This document shows, piece by piece, positions 35,219-62,426 of a stretch of 64,000 nucleotides of DNA. The position numbers were made by a program, and so were the translations under genes. Positions within the stretch are counted from its first letter, which is position 1. Every line of letters begins with the position of its first letter. The stretch lies in assembly GCA_021156105.1 (NCBI GenBank), contig JAJNBD010000002.1:198416-262415 (forward strand), in the 5' to 3' direction. This stretch comes from Gammaproteobacteria bacterium. GTDB lineage: Bacteria > Pseudomonadota > Gammaproteobacteria > CAISUE01. The notes beneath the pieces are model-generated. The model worked only from the letters and a program-made list of their open reading frames with translations, ran no database searches and had not been told where the DNA came from.

Positions 35219-35303
35219 TGATGGGCACGTTACGCTTTGCCCACCCTACAGCATAGGACTACGCAACACTGTAGGGTGGGCAAAGCGTAGCGTGCCCACC
35301 AAA
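35219..35303. repeat. REP doublet (inverted pair, BIME-like) 5' of the RAYT gene
   Basis: gatgggcacgttacgctttgcccaccctacag ... ctgtagggtgggcaaagcgtagcgtgcccacc. Confidence 0.65.
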
Positions 35304-35832: not shown

Positions 35833-35913
35833 GGTGGGCACGCTGCGCTTTGCCCACCCTACGGTCTTACGGAGTCCCATGTTGTAGAGTGGGCAAAGCG
35901 CAGCGTGTCTACC
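35833..35913. repeat. REP doublet 3' of the RAYT gene
   Basis: ggtgggcacgctgcgctttgcccaccctac ... gttgtagagtgggcaaagcgcagcgtgtctacc. Confidence 0.65.
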
Positions 35914-56474: not shown

Positions 56475-56640
56475 AGGGTTTTATGGAGAAAGAAATGAGA
56501 GTTATAAATATTATAACACTTTTTAGTAAAGCCTTAATGGTAGCTATCATATACTTATCTGTTCAAATTCTAAATTCTAATTATTAAAAAGAGGGGTAAA
56601 TGGCGGCTGTCTTTGTAGGGTATAAAAATGGTGGATACGC

Positions 56641-56726
56641 GTTGTAGAGGGCAAAGTCGCGCTAGCGACGTTTCCATCAACGCAATGGTAAAGGCAGCCT
56701 GCATAGCGCTTTGCTCACCCTACAAT
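56641..56726. repeat. Degenerate REP doublet
   Basis: gttgtagagggcaaag...ctttgctcaccctacaa inverted pair related to the RAYT REPs. Confidence 0.35.
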
Positions 56727-57169
56727 AAATTTCCTAGCCACAGAGAAAGATTGTACTTTTTTAAGTTTTTTTTAAGCTTTTAATGTTAAGATTACACTGA
56801 AACTCAAAAAAATATTTTTTATTTACAATTTGTATGATGAAACTTTTTAACTTTAACAACTTTAAATTTAGCGATAAAACTAGCTTTAACGCTTGGCATT
56901 TTATGCGTTATTTATTTAAAGGTTTTGGTTATCAGTTAAAAAGGTTAGTACAAAATGTTAAACAACAAAATATCTCAAAAGATTTACTCTCCGGTTCTTG
57001 TTGATCCTCAACAAAAAATTCACGTTTTAAATTCATTTTTATCATTAATCCTTACTAATCTCATAGGAGTTATTATGCTGCGCGCTATTTTTATACGATT
57101 TACCTGGCGATTTTCTAATTGCAAAAAAATGAACTCGATTTTACAAAAAAAACTATTAGGAGAACCGTT

Positions 57170-58360
57170 ATGTCGAAAGAAACGAAGTCAGCGCCTACTG
57201 AAGCAAAAAAGTTATTAACCATCCTTTTACATTGTGACCCTTTGGTAGGGGACACTGCATGTCATTTACGTGCTATTCATTTATTATTCCTTTATCATCA
57301 TATCCAAAAGCAAATTCAAGCAGTAGCTTCAGAGCAGGAGGAAATTGATTTGCTTGTGAAAAAGGATTTTCTTGAAGCAAGCTTATTGTTGACGAAGGCA
57401 CAAACCTCAAAGCTTGATCCGACGGGCTTATTAATTGGTCAAAAAACTAACACTGAGATTCCAGAGCTGTCAAAACTCAGTCGGACTAAGAAAGATGCTC
57501 TAATTGCTGAAGCACGGCAAAAGGTTGCAACAGAAACTTTAGGCTTTGTAAAAAGCTATTATCAAAGTATCAAAGATTTTTTCACGGATAATTTATCCAG
57601 GTATCTACTGCAAGAAGATTTTTTATATCTTAGCTCTAAGAAGGTGCACACGCCTATTTTGCCTTTCTATTTAAGTTGTAAAATTATGCTAGATATTTTG
57701 GCGCGTGAAAAACTTTTGCTTATTGTGCATATCAAAAGGCTAGCTGCTGCCGCAGATGTTTTCGAGAGAAAATTGCTGGGTGAAGCAGTTATATATTATT
57801 GCTATGATGACACATTACAGAAATTCGTGGTGCAAGATAAAAGCACTATTGCTGATAATGCACCAGGTTTAAAAATAAATATGTATAGCTGCTTGCCAGC
57901 GTTGTCGCATGGTGTTGAAAAATGTTTTGATCAAGTAGATAGCAGTATCTTTTTTCAAGATTTTAAGCAATTAGATATTGCTAAGATAATTTTAATGTGT
58001 GCTGTAGGGCATATCCAAGTGCCAGATGCGGCGCAAGGATCTCTTCAAGAGCTAAACCAGGATTTTAATATGCTTCAAGAAGGCGATGGGGAAAGTTTAA
58101 TGCGGGTGGATAATAATATTCACCAATGCTCAAAATTAGAATTTACTAAATTTTTATTGACAGCGAAAAAATATACAGTTTTTGGTTTAGAGGCATCGAG
58201 TATAAATCCAGTGCCGCCGATTCAGGTGAACCATGTTCATCTTTCAACGGCAGGGGAAGCAGCTGCCAGGCTTGGTATATTTTCACCACCGGCAGTACTA
58301 GATGTTGTGGCAGATGACCCGTTGAGTTCTCAAATAGAAAGGGAGAAAAGATATGTTTAA
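57170..58360 (+). CDS. Hypothetical protein, first gene of a three-gene coupled operon
   Basis: ATG 57170 with ggag SD; 396 aa, no recognisable domain; stop overlaps the next start by 8 nt. Confidence 0.5.
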   Translation: MSKETKSAPTEAKKLLTILLHCDPLVGDTACHLRAIHLLFLYHHIQKQIQAVASEQEEIDLLVKKDFLEASLLLTKAQTSKLDPTGLLIGQKTNTEIPELSKLSRTKKDALIAEARQKVATETLGFVKSYYQSIKDFFTDNLSRYLLQEDFLYLSSKKVHTPILPFYLSCKIMLDILAREKLLLIVHIKRLAAAADVFERKLLGEAVIYYCYDDTLQKFVVQDKSTIADNAPGLKINMYSCLPALSHGVEKCFDQVDSSIFFQDFKQLDIAKIILMCAVGHIQVPDAAQGSLQELNQDFNMLQEGDGESLMRVDNNIHQCSKLEFTKFLLTAKKYTVFGLEASSINPVPPIQVNHVHLSTAGEAAARLGIFSPPAVLDVVADDPLSSQIEREKRYV

Positions 58361-59384
58361 ATTAACTGAAGATAAATTACCAGCTTTAGCTATTGGCGCT
58401 ACTATGCTTGGATCTGGAGGCGGGGGAAACCCTAAAATTTTATATGATCTTGTACATTATCAATTACAAAAATATGGTGCAGTTAATATTTTATCAATTG
58501 ATGAAATAAAGCCTGATCAAATTGTTGTGCCGCTAGCTTTTGTGGGCGCACCGCTCGTGAGCTTAGAAAAAATACCTAATATAAAAATTTTTGATAAGAT
58601 TTTTGCGCAACTACAAAAGCTTTTTCCAGCAAGGCAAATAGTATTGATGCCTACAGAGATCGGTGGCTGCAATGCTTTAACACCGCTTTTGATTGCAGGG
58701 AAATATCAGTTGCCTGTTTTAGACGCAGATATTATCGGTAGGGCTTTTCCTGAAATTAATATGTGTAAACCAATGGTATTAAATTGTAGCAATGATCCAA
58801 CTATTCTTGCCGACACGGCAGGAAATTTGGTGATATTACATTTAACCGAGCCTAACAAAATTGAAGAAATTGTAAGAAATGTTATCCCAAGCCTTGGTTT
58901 GAGCGCGGGTATTGCAACGTTTATTTGCAGTGGTGAGCAGGCAAAGAGCCAAGTTATTGAAGGAAGTATTTCCTTAGCGTTAAAGCTTGGCGAGGCTTGG
59001 TCATCCAATCAAAAAACACCGCTGAATTTTTTTGAGATAACAAACACAAAGCTTCTTGCGACAGGCATGATTAACGATGTGTTCTATGATTTAAGCCAGG
59101 GTTTTGTAGAAGGCTATGTCACCGTTTCTACGCTTGAAGGAATAGTAAAAGTTTTTTATCAAAATGAATTTTTACTGGTAAAGCAGGGCGATAAGGTATT
59201 GGCTGGTAGCCCGAATATTATCACTTTAATTGATGCAAAGACGGGTTTGCTTATTACGGCAGAAGCTTTGACTTATGGAATAACTGTGCTAGTTATATGC
59301 ATTCCTGCTCCTGATTTTTGGCTTACGGAGACTGCTAAACCTCATGTAGATTATAAAAATATTTGTGCTAAGGAGCTCCTATGA
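58353..59384 (+). CDS. DUF917-family protein
   Basis: 343 aa; Gly-rich MLGSGGGGNP N-terminal motif typical of DUF917. Confidence 0.55.
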   Translation: MFKLTEDKLPALAIGATMLGSGGGGNPKILYDLVHYQLQKYGAVNILSIDEIKPDQIVVPLAFVGAPLVSLEKIPNIKIFDKIFAQLQKLFPARQIVLMPTEIGGCNALTPLLIAGKYQLPVLDADIIGRAFPEINMCKPMVLNCSNDPTILADTAGNLVILHLTEPNKIEEIVRNVIPSLGLSAGIATFICSGEQAKSQVIEGSISLALKLGEAWSSNQKTPLNFFEITNTKLLATGMINDVFYDLSQGFVEGYVTVSTLEGIVKVFYQNEFLLVKQGDKVLAGSPNIITLIDAKTGLLITAEALTYGITVLVICIPAPDFWLTETAKPHVDYKNICAKELL

Positions 59385-60910
59385 AAAAATATATTTTAGG
59401 TATTGATGTTGGTGGCACGCATGTTGACTTTGTCATCGTAGACCAGCAGCAAAAAATCTATGCTTACCATAAAGAAGTTATTGGCAATTCAGCGGAAAAA
59501 ACCATATTGAATGGTATTGGTAAATTGATGCGAGAGCAAAACTTTTTACCGCAAGACTGCTCATCCGTACATCTTGGTACAACGATTGGGGTCAATAGCT
59601 TGTTAGCGTTGCAGAATGTATCTCGAGTGGGCTTGATTAGAGTTGCAGGTCATCAGCCTGATCTGTTGCCAGCTTATCAGTGGTCGGTGGCTCAGCGCGC
59701 AGCAATTTTAGCAGGTTATGAAACTATTAATGGCGGTAAAGAATTTAATAATAAATCTATTACCCGTTTTGATGTGCAAGCGCTGAAGCTTGCTGTTAAA
59801 AAGCTATTAGATGCTGGTGCTCAATCGCTTGGTATTGTAAGTGTATTTTCACCGCTCTATACAGATGAGGAGTTAAAAGCAGCAGAGATTATTTTAAATG
59901 AGTTTGGTGCTGAAATTCCTTTAACATTATCACATGAGGTTGGTGGTTTAGGATTTATTGAGCGTGAGAACAATGTTTTAATAAATGCCAGTTTAAAACA
60001 AGTAATGAGAGAAAATTTTTCATTCTTGCAAAAAGAATTGCACGAATTAGGTTTTTCATGTGAATGTTATATCACACAAAATAATGGCACTTTGCTGCAC
60101 CTTGATGAAGCAATACGTTTTCCGATTAAGACGCTTTCTTCTGGTCCAACAAATTCATTAGTTGGTGCTTGCAAGTTAGCAGGCCTTAGCGATGCGATTA
60201 TTGTAGATATCGGCGGGACTTCAACAGATATTGGTATTATTGAAAATGCCTTTCCTCGTTATTCTTCAGCGGGAGCTGTAATTGCGGGGATTGCGACCAA
60301 TTTTATGCTACCAGATGTGCATGTGTTACCGCTTGGTGGCGGTAGCATTATTGAAAAGCTTAATGGCGAATATCAAATTCAACCGGTGAGCTTAGGTGCA
60401 AAAGTTTTTCAAGAATGCAAATCAGCCGGGGGCGCATATTTGACACTATTTGATATCGGTAATATTTTGAATCATGGTAAAGCTATTGATGGTGTAAGCT
60501 GCGAATTGGCTGAAAAATTAATGCAAGAAGTTTGTGCTCGTATTAAGGCTTTAGCTCATTCTATTCCTGCTAAAACTAAGCTACCCGTTATCCTTGTTGG
60601 CGGTGGAGTGCAAAATATTCCAGAAGCATACTTGGACAAAGATTTTTACCGACCTCATTTTTATCAGGTTGCTAATGCCTATGGGGCGGCATTAGCGGAA
60701 GTAGCTTGTACGGTTGATGTTGTTCAGCCATTAATGCATGATAAAGAAAGTACTTTACAAGCGCTAGAGCAGCAAGCAATGGCTAAAGCAATTGCGCAAG
60801 GCGTCGATCCTAAGACAGTTAGGATTATTGAAAAGCGTTTATTGCCTTTCTTTTATATGCCAAATCAAATGACTAGAATTATTATTACAGCAGCCGGAAG
60901 GAAAATATAA
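59381..60910 (+). CDS. Hydantoinase/oxoprolinase-family protein (HyuA N-terminal type, ASKHA fold)
   Basis: LGIDVGGTHVD N-terminus and second phosphate-2-like DIGGTSTDIG motif; ATGA overlap with the DUF917 gene. Confidence 0.65.
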   Translation: MKKYILGIDVGGTHVDFVIVDQQQKIYAYHKEVIGNSAEKTILNGIGKLMREQNFLPQDCSSVHLGTTIGVNSLLALQNVSRVGLIRVAGHQPDLLPAYQWSVAQRAAILAGYETINGGKEFNNKSITRFDVQALKLAVKKLLDAGAQSLGIVSVFSPLYTDEELKAAEIILNEFGAEIPLTLSHEVGGLGFIERENNVLINASLKQVMRENFSFLQKELHELGFSCECYITQNNGTLLHLDEAIRFPIKTLSSGPTNSLVGACKLAGLSDAIIVDIGGTSTDIGIIENAFPRYSSAGAVIAGIATNFMLPDVHVLPLGGGSIIEKLNGEYQIQPVSLGAKVFQECKSAGGAYLTLFDIGNILNHGKAIDGVSCELAEKLMQEVCARIKALAHSIPAKTKLPVILVGGGVQNIPEAYLDKDFYRPHFYQVANAYGAALAEVACTVDVVQPLMHDKESTLQALEQQAMAKAIAQGVDPKTVRIIEKRLLPFFYMPNQMTRIIITAAGRKI

Positions 60911-60952
60911 ATCAATCCTCTCTTGCTTGTGTAAGAGAGGATTTTAAGGCTA

Positions 60953-61699
60953 TTAAGTGTTTTGAGTAAGCTGAGTTAATGTTGTAATAAACAAACTTGG
61001 GTCAGCATTAGCCACTGTGCGGTTACTAATATAATAAACTTTGCCATCTTTTATCACGATGACTGTTGGGATTTCCATGATTTTAAATGCTTGCATTAAC
61101 GCTTGATCGTTTTTGAGATCGGCTTGAAGTTCTGCGCTGTTGGCAACTTTGTCATAGTCTTCAGCTTTAACACCATTGTTTAAGAAAAAGCTGCGTAATT
61201 GTTCATCGCTATTTAAGCCAAGCAATGGGTTTTGAGCAATATCAAAAATTTTGCCATTTAAAGTTTTGTCTAACTTTAATGCATGAGAAATATGATAGGC
61301 TTTGCTTAATACATCCCAGCCTGATTCAAATGCCACAGGAACAGGCTGAAAAGTGATATAAGGTTTTGCTTTTTTATCAGGGCTTCCAAAAGGTGGCAGA
61401 ATTTTCTTGGTATTTGCTGCAACCCATTGGTCAATATAAGAATGCAGTTTGTAACAATGAGGGCAACCGAAGCTAAAAAAATCTAACACTAGAATTTGAT
61501 GCGGCAGTGTTTTTAAGTTGGCCGGTACAAGGTTCGAAGAAAGTGTTTCGTAATTGGGTTTGGTGGTTGGTGCAGGTGTAGCGGTACTGCTAGTTGCTGT
61601 TGGCTTAGCAGCTGGTGTTGTGGAGGTTTGTTGTGCTTGTGCTGTGCTTAAACTAATGGTTAAAACACAAAATAAGATTTTAATTAAAGACTTTTTCAT
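60953..61699 (-). CDS. DsbA-family thiol:disulfide oxidoreductase with Thr/Pro-rich N-terminal linker
   Basis: FFSFGCPHCYKL CxxC motif; signal peptide at the internal Met (MKKSLIKILFCV...AQA); 25 nt downstream of the icmL-like gene. Confidence 0.7.
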   Translation of the reverse strand: MKKSLIKILFCVLTISLSTAQAQQTSTTPAAKPTATSSTATPAPTTKPNYETLSSNLVPANLKTLPHQILVLDFFSFGCPHCYKLHSYIDQWVAANTKKILPPFGSPDKKAKPYITFQPVPVAFESGWDVLSKAYHISHALKLDKTLNGKIFDIAQNPLLGLNSDEQLRSFFLNNGVKAEDYDKVANSAELQADLKNDQALMQAFKIMEIPTVIVIKDGKVYYISNRTVANADPSLFITTLTQLTQNT

Positions 61700-61724
61700 A
61701 ATTTGCTCGTAATAAATAGTTTGT

Positions 61725-62426
61725 TTAACCTTGTGCAGCTTGATTAATGTTTTGTCCGGTTTCTTGGTCTGGATAGCCTTCAGCGGCAATGTAATTGGTA
61801 ATGCCAATACCGTTTGGATTGGTTAGCGTAGAAATTCGCTTAATCATCAAAGTAACAATGAGTGATTGTTGGCTATATTCGCTGGCACTTTGATAAGTGA
61901 CTAAAATAGGTATATTGACTACCCAAGTGTATACGCCATCAAGTATTGCTTCACGTAGGATGGTTGGAGCGCGAGTCGCAACAGCAGAGACCACTAACTT
62001 TTTCTCTAAAACAGCATTTAAGTTACGCGAAGCTTTTAACTCGTTAAGATAGGCTTGCCAGCCATCTGGCGTGAAATATTCAGAGGCTTTTTGCAATTGC
62101 TCACGATAATTGAAAAAGTCATAAGTGTTAACCGCGATGACAGCAGTATTTGCCCATTGGAGAAGCGCCGCTTGCGAAACATTTGGCTGATTCAAGGGAA
62201 TAAGGGGAACAAGCTTGCCGTCGGCATAAGTTGCAAAATATTTTGGTTGAGGCGGATGGCTCATGACATAAATAACTGCGCCAACTAGAATGATCAAACA
62301 TAAGATAGCAAGATTAAGCGCAACGAGTACTTTACGGTAACTATCGCGATAAAATTCGTTGCGTGCGTTGACGGCAACTAGAACTTCATCTTGTTTGGGG
62401 CTATTTGGGTTTGGGGTGTCGGTCAT
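61725..62426 (-). CDS. icmL: Dot/Icm type IVB secretion core protein IcmL/DotI-like
   Basis: 233 aa, single TM after a cytoplasmic N-terminus. The TM-proximal region (YFATYADGKLVPLIPL) is paralogous to the 100-aa gene upstream. This gene sits after an OmpA-like lipoprotein, matching icmN-icmM-icmL. Confidence 0.6.
   Translation of the reverse strand: MTDTPNPNSPKQDEVLVAVNARNEFYRDSYRKVLVALNLAILCLIILVGAVIYVMSHPPQPKYFATYADGKLVPLIPLNQPNVSQAALLQWANTAVIAVNTYDFFNYREQLQKASEYFTPDGWQAYLNELKASRNLNAVLEKKLVVSAVATRAPTILREAILDGVYTWVVNIPILVTYQSASEYSQQSLIVTLMIKRISTLTNPNGIGITNYIAAEGYPDQETGQNINQAAQG

Follow-up and report, generated by a model that had tools for sequence, protein, structure and literature searches.

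A putative DUF917-hydantoinase-A enzyme operon headed by a new protein family and a candidate leader peptide in a gammaproteobacterium

What could a hydantoinase-type ATPase do in an operon that does not code for its usual partner subunit? The question is raised by three genes at positions 57170-60910 of a 64,000-nt stretch of DNA, hereafter called the window, from a Gammaproteobacteria bacterium (assembly GCA_021156105.1, contig JAJNBD010000002.1). They code for a protein without a described domain (X), a DUF917 protein (D) and a short hydantoinase-A-type ASKHA ATPase (H). We give an even chance to the reading that D and H form an ATP-dependent enzyme for a hydantoin-like heterocycle in which DUF917 takes the place of the metal subunit HyuB, that X is a lineage-specific addition and that a leader peptide controls the operon.

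All three genes are on the forward strand. X (57170-58360) codes for 396 residues; the mechanical open reading frame (ORF) begins at TTG 57119, and we placed the start at ATG 57170 because it is preceded by AGGAG and the starts of homologues match there. D (58353-59384) codes for a DUF917/S-Me-THD-like protein of 343 residues and H (59381-60910) for a protein of 509 residues. X and D overlap by 8 nt, ATGTTTAA (junction ...agggagaaaagatATGTTTAA), and D and H by 4 nt, ATGA (junction ...aaggagctcctATGA). Each gene has its own Shine-Dalgarno (SD) sequence, with SD-like AGGGAG and AAGGAG 7-8 nt 5' of the two internal starts. The original prediction, made from the letters of the window, of a three-gene operon with translational coupling is thus borne out; stoichiometric co-expression of the three proteins is what the overlaps alone would suggest. 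That prediction also held that no HyuB partner is present, and we found no HyuB homologue in the 64 kb of the window (best tblastn E 0.37). Neither did tblastn find a match for an NCS1 permease there.

Pfam searches confirmed the DUF917 and hydantoinase assignments. H matches Hydant_A_N (E 2e-28, 99.6 bits) and Hydantoinase_A (E 6e-32, 111.6 bits), the latter profile being covered over positions 1-173 of 291 only. Its relatives in the Protein Data Bank (PDB) are the N-methylhydantoinase 7hk5 (E 3e-25), 6yra (deposited as 5-oxoprolinase) and subunits of acetophenone and acetone carboxylases; alignments with them end at residue 359-371 and cover only residues 3-371 of H. Both domains of HyuA-type proteins are found in H, as are the phosphate-1 and phosphate-2 motifs, D9-x-GGT-x-x-D16 (DVGGTHVD) and D276-x-GGT-x-x-D283 (DIGGTSTD). 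These ASKHA motifs and two GGG loops (319-321 and 407-409) show conservation of 95% or more among 65 homologues. They correspond to the phosphate-1/phosphate-2 motifs of the caprolactamase subunit CapA, whose Asp-to-Ala mutants are nearly inactive (PMC8453981). CapA, a protein of ~696 residues, has been proposed to phosphorylate the lactim form of its substrate, followed by transfer to the metal subunit CapB, which it contacts through a helix (418-438) and a loop in an alpha+beta domain (495-610) (PMC8453981). With 509 residues versus ~690 in canonical HyuA/CapA, H is ~180 residues shorter and does not have the full-length architecture of ~680-700 residues with alpha+beta and barrel domains at the C-terminus. 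As its homology stops at residue 371 and its length is just 509 residues, the C-terminal domain with part of the CapB contact (495-610) appears to be missing from H.

D matches S-Me-THD_N (PF06032, formerly DUF917; E 2e-41, 141.9 bits) and S-Me-THD_C (PF20906; E 1e-34, 119.7 bits), and both scores exceed the gathering threshold of 27 bits. The GSGGGG loop and the EIGGxN, DxDxxGRAFP and QNE motifs are invariant in the alignment of its homologues. The AlphaFold2 (AF2) model of D, with a predicted local distance difference test (pLDDT) score of 92.9, has a single structural match, the structural-genomics entry 2o3i (template modelling (TM) score 0.85, E 1e-21). A preprint has noted the enrichment of DUF917 next to hydantoin racemases and suggested a hydantoinase-like role. 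Enrichment of DUF917 genes is also seen in cyclodipeptide-oxidase clusters, and peptide-derived metabolites have been suggested for these. In the literature searched on DUF917, thiohydantoin desulfurase and hydantoinase in Chlamydiae and Legionella, we found no functional study.

We then surveyed related loci with a DUF917 alignment, scanned against a single genome for each species, and tabulated the loci with home-built profiles. This yielded 82 distinct loci, selected solely on DUF917 similarity. In 77 of them, a short HyuA gene lies next to that for DUF917 and in the same orientation; these loci come from Actinobacteria, Chloroflexi, Firmicutes, Betaproteobacteria, Gammaproteobacteria, Chlamydiae, Dependentiae and Rickettsiales. 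We regard the D-H pair as the old, widespread core of the module. X is present in 52/82 loci, where it heads the operon, and an NCS1-type permease (P) belongs to the operon in 53/82; the order X-P-D-H occurs in 37/82 loci and X-D-H in 12/82. Co-occurrence of the three families is thus strongly conserved, and the X-D-H arrangement is far beyond chance, as many unrelated genomes have these families in this order. A Hydantoinase_B (PF02538) partner was found neither in the window nor in the 81 related loci, save one (L064), whose HyuB adjoins its own separate full-length HyuA of 682 residues.

The loci with X carry the labels Legionellales/Legionellaceae, Coxiellaceae, Babeliaceae/Dependentiae and Midichloriaceae, together with many Chlamydiae (Simkania, Parachlamydia relatives, Waddliaceae, Rhabdochlamydia and Anoxychlamydiales) and some metagenome-assembled genomes (MAGs) labelled Verrucomicrobia or 'Acidobacteria'. 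D-H pairs without X were found in Streptomyces, Arthrobacter, Gaiellaceae, Chloroflexi/Thermomicrobia, Thermaceae, Clostridium, Pediococcus and Betaproteobacteria. A rough neighbour-joining tree of D places the window with six other X-D-H loci, in a group nested within a gammaproteobacterial clade whose deeper branches have X-P-D(-H). The permease therefore appears to have been lost secondarily in the lineage of the window. The three-gene module of the original prediction stands as found here, but the ancestral module probably had a fourth gene, for an NCS1-type permease, lost in the Legionellales subclade of the window. By sequence comparison, then, the operon is a permease-less form of a conserved X-P-D-H module from bacteria labelled host-associated, and the X module has probably spread by horizontal transfer. 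In a Coxiellaceae MAG (L012:1635-3944), permease and DUF917 form one ORF of 769 residues, which is a true fusion or results from misassembly; a true fusion would link DUF917 physically to the transporter.

The free-living versions of the pair have other neighbours. Hydantoin-family (Asp/Glu/hydantoin) racemases are encoded beside D-H in six free-living loci and a PucR regulator in one (L082), and the free-living clusters with a second DUF917 paralogue fall within L057-L087. The triad of permease, DUF917 and hydantoinase has been annotated, without a function, in Clostridioides difficile and Lacticaseibacillus rhamnosus (PMC12915319, PMC7513527).

The first gene of the operon had been described as lacking a recognisable domain, and X indeed has no Pfam, NCBIfam or PDB sequence match; a profile search against PDB sequences gave none at E<=10. 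It is not, however, the orphan that it had seemed to be. A word-indexed homologue search found one relative only, but HMMER and neighbourhood look-ups recovered a conserved family, with 48 representatives among 1.84 billion proteins in an exhaustive HMMER search. The closest D homologues each have in front of them an unannotated gene for ~400 residues that is homologous to X (49% identity in L001, 32% in L002), and profile searches confirmed X in chlamydial, Dependentiae and Verrucomicrobia loci. From its sequences, X is a small new family of predicted soluble proteins without a described domain. In 84 sequences, C31 (99%), H281 (99%), H355 (98%), D23 (95%), L74 (92%) and R34 (90%) are conserved, and the N-terminal motif reads DPLVGDTACQxRA. 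The AF2 model (pLDDT 88.2, predicted TM score 0.88) has a disordered C-terminal tail (374-396). Its Foldseek matches were not significant, with best E values of 0.95 in the PDB and 0.18 among the BFVD viral models. We also considered X as a divergent DUF917 protein, which was ruled out by hhalign (probability 0.1).

Some members of the family have features of their own. Signal-peptide-like N-termini are found in seven of them, mostly from Babeliaceae, while no Sec signal is present in the X proteins of Gammaproteobacteria or in most of those of Chlamydiae. One member (P0166, L088:2300-4495) has both such an N-terminus and a zf-MYND domain at its C-terminus, and its gene precedes an Ank+MYND gene; both genes are inserted before the permease-DUF917-HyuA genes, which places eukaryote-like domains inside an operon. 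In a Parachlamydia MAG (L049:3447-4448), an F-box gene stands upstream of the permease in the usual place of X, and no X was detected at that locus. X is split into two ORFs in several MAG loci (L014:4872-5988, L021, L022, L024, L027 and L031), with D and H intact; these are frameshifts, pseudogenes or sequencing errors. A Midichloriaceae locus (L046:2264-4845) has two tandem copies of X, each behind an identical small ORF of 41 residues ending in YHWHHRHYHI. As the identical ORF precedes each copy, it was duplicated along with X.

Small ORFs also precede X in the window. The intergenic region (56475-57169) is AT-rich (GC 0.28-0.34), as the original prediction of a regulatory region had stated, but that label also took in a conserved small ORF, one of two that this region contains along with a palindrome. 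ORF B (57075-57218, forward strand; 47 residues, MLRAIFIRFTWRFSNCKK...) is preceded by the SD sequence ATAGGAG and may code for a leader peptide. Its reading frame differs from that of X, and its stop lies 49 nt past the ATG of X. The same architecture, i.e. an SD sequence and ATG, W-[R/H] at codons 8-11, 40-49 codons in all and a stop within X, 41-56 nt past its ATG, is found in 7/9 Legionellales/Coxiellaceae-type loci (the window and six other gammaproteobacterial loci), whose X proteins are just ~26-32% identical where compared. The W-[R/H] pair often lies within His runs (HHRWHWQ, HHWHWR, LWRHHHH, QHHHWHH, CYWRFFHH and FCWRFSHF). Dinucleotide shuffles gave this architecture in at most 0.0005 of cases per locus; the criteria were set post hoc, but the margin over the shuffles is large. 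Beyond its N-terminal motif, ORF B is not conserved in the clade of the window, where it overlaps the start of X.

In loci outside this clade, ORFs of 36-55 residues that follow an SD sequence and have His/Trp/Arg/Tyr-rich tails are found 100-250 nt upstream of X. With a criterion again chosen post hoc, at least five His+Trp per 12-residue window, 10/31 upstream regions were positive versus 5.9% of random segments (p ~7e-6); general richness in His, Trp, Arg and Tyr upstream of X, likewise a post hoc measure, showed a modest enrichment only. The small ORF of the window has no His-rich core. ORF A (56834-57004, forward strand; 56 residues, MMKLFNFNNFKFSDKTSFNAWHF...) has no SD sequence, and its status is weak. 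ORFs resembling it, with W-[R/H/C] at residues 12-21, are found at the same relative position in L002, L004, L063 and L073. ORF A carries a W-H motif, and its counterparts in L002 share the segments LFN.NFK...W and LKR.VQ, which suggests that it may have arisen as a second copy of the leader, either in tandem or decayed.

How ORF B would act is less clear-cut: it could cause pausing on rare charged tRNAs, code for a ligand-dependent arrest peptide or simply couple translation to that of X. A hairpin sequestering the SD sequence and tied to the W-R codons was considered but is not claimed here; minimum free energy structures were suggestive, yet the pairing was not above that of dinucleotide shuffles (pairing probability of the X SD sequence 0.37-0.93, with 0.14-0.9 of shuffles reaching the observed value). 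The leader contains no intrinsic terminator, and no riboswitch or known small RNA was matched in Rfam. A PmrA-like tandem TTAAT upstream of X was dropped, with one loose match in the window and 0/9 in related upstream regions.

How might these elements work together? Given the adjacency of D and H, the ASKHA motifs, the lack of HyuB and the context of permeases, racemases and a PucR regulator, we infer an ATP-dependent enzyme for a heterocycle. H would phosphorylate, at the expense of ATP, a small cyclic amide or ureide in its lactim or enol form, such as a hydantoin-like five-membered ring; the same step has been proposed for HyuA/CapA-type subunits. D would stand in for the missing metal subunit HyuB and perform a hydrolytic step on the activated ring carbon; such a role would agree with the chemistry suggested by the names that NCBIfam gives to its DUF917 relatives, the thiohydantoin desulfurases. 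X may add a step confined to X-bearing lineages, either as a third subunit in place of the second DUF917 paralogue of free-living bacteria or as a hydrolase that makes or further processes the substrate. X and a second D were never found together, which would fit X as a replacement subunit. ORF B, with its W-R/H motif and its overlap with the start of X, probably sets the expression of the operon through ribosome pausing or arrest. As for the chemistry put forward in the original prediction, ATP-dependent ring opening follows reasonably from the ASKHA motifs and gene contexts, while carboxylation found no support.

Several points weigh against this reading. The D-H clade has no characterised member, and the literature searched contained no paper on it. 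The model of D has no likeness to HyuB-containing structures, and the replacement of HyuB is thus an analogy only. Thiohydantoin desulfurases have NCBIfam equivalog models of their own and are not known to need an ATPase partner. The exclusivity of X and the second D paralogue (H-D-D' in 15/30 loci without X and 0/52 with X; Fisher p 2e-8) is confounded by phylogeny. The signal-peptide-like N-termini and the zf-MYND domain on some X proteins fit poorly with a cytoplasmic subunit. Finally, the window has no permease, and the substrate may here be endogenous.

The features of X also lend themselves to another explanation, which we consider unlikely. X could be an effector secreted to act on a host molecule: a divergent cysteine hydrolase of papain/OTU-like type that leaves the cell through Sec in Dependentiae and through type III or type IV systems elsewhere; the permease and D-H would then import and process a small molecule that it frees, or merely be co-transcribed with it. 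X is found almost only in lineages labelled intracellular or host-associated, and the seven signal-peptide-like N-termini, the zf-MYND domain of P0166 with the Ank+MYND gene after it and the F-box protein at the position of X in L049 all point the same way, as do the disordered C-terminal tail of the window X and the vicinity of the Dot/Icm genes icmL, icmM and icmN. In the model, C31 is the first residue of a helix (31-51), preceded by D28-x-x, and H355 lies within a beta-strand (352-360); a Cys at a helix start and a His on a strand recall the layout of papain/OTU-type hydrolases. OTU proteins top both Foldseek hit lists, with non-significant matches (TM ~0.1). This resemblance is a lead only, and the conserved residues could equally form a Cys/His/His/Asp metal site. 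No peptidase fold or sequence match was significant (Foldseek E 0.18-0.95), and no OTU or peptidase Pfam match was found among 42 X members at E<=1. Moreover, the lack of a Sec signal in the gammaproteobacterial and most chlamydial proteins and the conserved, tight translational coupling to cytoplasmic enzymes argue against an effector. Members of the family are also found in phyla with no Dot/Icm genes at their loci.

The proposed D-H chemistry could also be combined with an X acting elsewhere, although we regard this combination as quite unlikely. X would be a Cys/His enzyme of a new fold that frees the heterocycle outside the cytoplasm or in the host, the NCS1 protein would import it, D-H would open it and a nascent, His/Trp/Arg-rich leader peptide would act as the switch. 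X would then found a family in intracellular bacteria of at least four phyla, with the leader sensing the supply of the metabolite or of amino acids.

The small ORFs raise the question of whether the operon could be a cluster for a ribosomally synthesized and post-translationally modified peptide (RiPP), with the small ORF as a precursor with a His/Trp/Arg core, H and D as ATP-dependent activators and modifiers of an amide, X as the processing protease and the permease as an exporter. SD-preceded small ORFs with segments rich in His, Trp, Arg and Tyr are indeed found repeatedly in front of X in different phyla, some of them as tandem pairs or sets, and the His+Trp enrichment given above, the ATP-dependent amide activation proposed for the HyuA family (PMC8453981) and the presence of DUF917 in cyclodipeptide-oxidase clusters are consistent with such a cluster. 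We find it very unlikely, however. A conserved motif near the N-terminus followed by an unconserved remainder over the start of X is the pattern of a regulatory leader, the ORF of the window has no His-rich core and the free-living D-H clusters look catabolic, with their racemase, PucR and permease genes. NCS1 proteins are importers, which also speaks against an export role.

Might the operon belong to ergothioneine catabolism, with D as its thiohydantoin or S-methyl-thiohydantoin desulfurase? The original prediction regarded DUF917 as having no assigned function; Pfam and NCBIfam now name thiohydantoin desulfurases, the only named functions within the family, but D itself scores below their cut-offs. 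These desulfurases are its best NCBIfam matches (E 2e-21 and 3e-18), and a histidine-related metabolite would fit the His-rich leaders. Its scores of 76.7 versus a cut-off of 450 bits and 66.1 versus 440 bits are so far below the equivalog thresholds that, by this sequence criterion, D is not a member of the named desulfurases. Ergothioneine catabolism also needs ergothionase, thiourocanate hydratase and carbamoylase, and the other enzymes of the pathway are absent among the Pfam-annotated genes of the eight loci looked up. We know of no reason to expect an obligatory pairing of these desulfurases with an ATPase. This assignment is thus very improbable indeed.

Least credible is an ordinary HyuA/HyuB hydantoinase, 5-oxoprolinase or acetone-carboxylase relative with its B subunit encoded elsewhere, since, although the nearest solved relatives of H belong to such enzymes and our HyuB search covered 64 kb of a 775 kb contig, H is too short, its canonical homology ends at residue 371, and in 77/82 loci the short HyuA goes with DUF917 but in none with HyuB, that of L064 having its own HyuA.

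The operon is flanked on its 5' side, beyond the intergenic region, by a peptidase M3 gene. On its 3' side are a convergent DsbA-like gene and then genes for IcmL/DotI (Pfam E 2e-58), an IcmM-like protein and an OmpA-type lipoprotein. The positions 60953-61807 and 61725-63257, both on the reverse strand, cover this set, in which icmN-like (OmpA lipoprotein), icmM-like and icmL/dotI genes are directly followed by the DsbA-like gene, whose product has a thioredoxin fold and a signal peptide; in Legionella pneumophila, the gene that follows at this place is icmK. An ORF of 217 residues upstream of the icm genes (63336-63989) was assigned to no family. Between the convergent H and DsbA-like genes, a stem-loop (60914-60943) with an 11-bp stem, 3 nt past the stop codon of H, is a candidate terminator with a terminator-like match on the reverse strand; this role is only a positional inference, as the scan overall was not enriched over shuffles. 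The palindrome upstream of the operon (~56600-56745) is GC-rich and imperfect and resembles repetitive extragenic palindromic (REP) elements. It folds with -48 kcal/mol (z just -1.2), and its core of 18-20 nt, GCGCTTTGCTCACCCTACAA, recurs as inverted pairs in intergenic positions (35233-35287 and 35845-35901). By its looks, this is a REP-like repeat family; the sole Rfam match is a weak one to the REP-derived naRNA4 (E 0.97).

If DUF917 were shown to substitute for HyuB, it would define a second architecture for the ATP-driven opening of stable cyclic amides, and the hydrolysis of lactams and hydantoins is of biocatalytic interest. The D-H pair is widespread, from C. difficile, lactobacilli and Streptomyces to Chlamydiae, and has no assigned reaction. 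The version with X, common to Legionellales, Coxiellaceae, Chlamydiae, Dependentiae and Midichloriaceae, points to a shared host-derived metabolite or a host-directed activity. With its confident model, no fold match and an invariant Cys/His/His/Asp set, X is a target for structural and enzymological work, and the conserved W-R/H leader ORF offers an experimental handle on the inducing signal and thereby on the substrate. The chance that X and the leader are something new is modest.

Among known systems, the operon resembles the ATP-dependent hydantoinase/oxoprolinase family (HyuA/HyuB, OplA/B, CapA/CapB and the acetone and acetophenone carboxylases) at the level of the ATPase subunit: H has the same domains and ASKHA motifs, and its gene adjoins that of its presumed partner. 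Unlike those systems, it has no HyuB/CapB, its ATPase is ~180 residues shorter, the partner is a DUF917 protein of another fold, and X and often an NCS1 permease are added to the operon; by these sequence features, it does not qualify as a HyuA/HyuB system. With the thiohydantoin desulfurases (NF058529, NF058532), which by name act on five-membered ureide-type rings, D shares the two-domain DUF917 fold family; it differs from them in reaching ~1/6 of the equivalog cut-offs and in being paired with an ATPase. The free-living triads (C. difficile CDR20291_1615-1617, L. rhamnosus, Streptomyces and Arthrobacter) have the same D-H pair and a permease of the NCS1-type family. They have neither X nor a W-R/H leader, whereas the window has X and no permease. 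A second DUF917 paralogue is found in Actinobacterial, Chloroflexi and some other free-living versions (15 loci) and a hydantoin-type racemase in Actinobacterial and Betaproteobacterial loci.

The upstream region is best compared with leader-peptide control, as in the TrpL and HisL attenuation of Escherichia coli and the ligand-sensing arrest peptides TnaC and SpeFL. It differs from attenuators, with no terminator/antiterminator or significant SD-sequestering hairpin found here, and from those responding to a single amino acid in its mixture of Trp, His, Arg and Tyr. Rather than ending before the first structural gene, ORF B enters it by 41-56 nt. The likeness lies in the short, SD-preceded ORF just upstream of the operon with its conserved Trp-Arg/His cluster, and the peptide of the window, MLRAIFIRFTWRFS, resembles TrpL.

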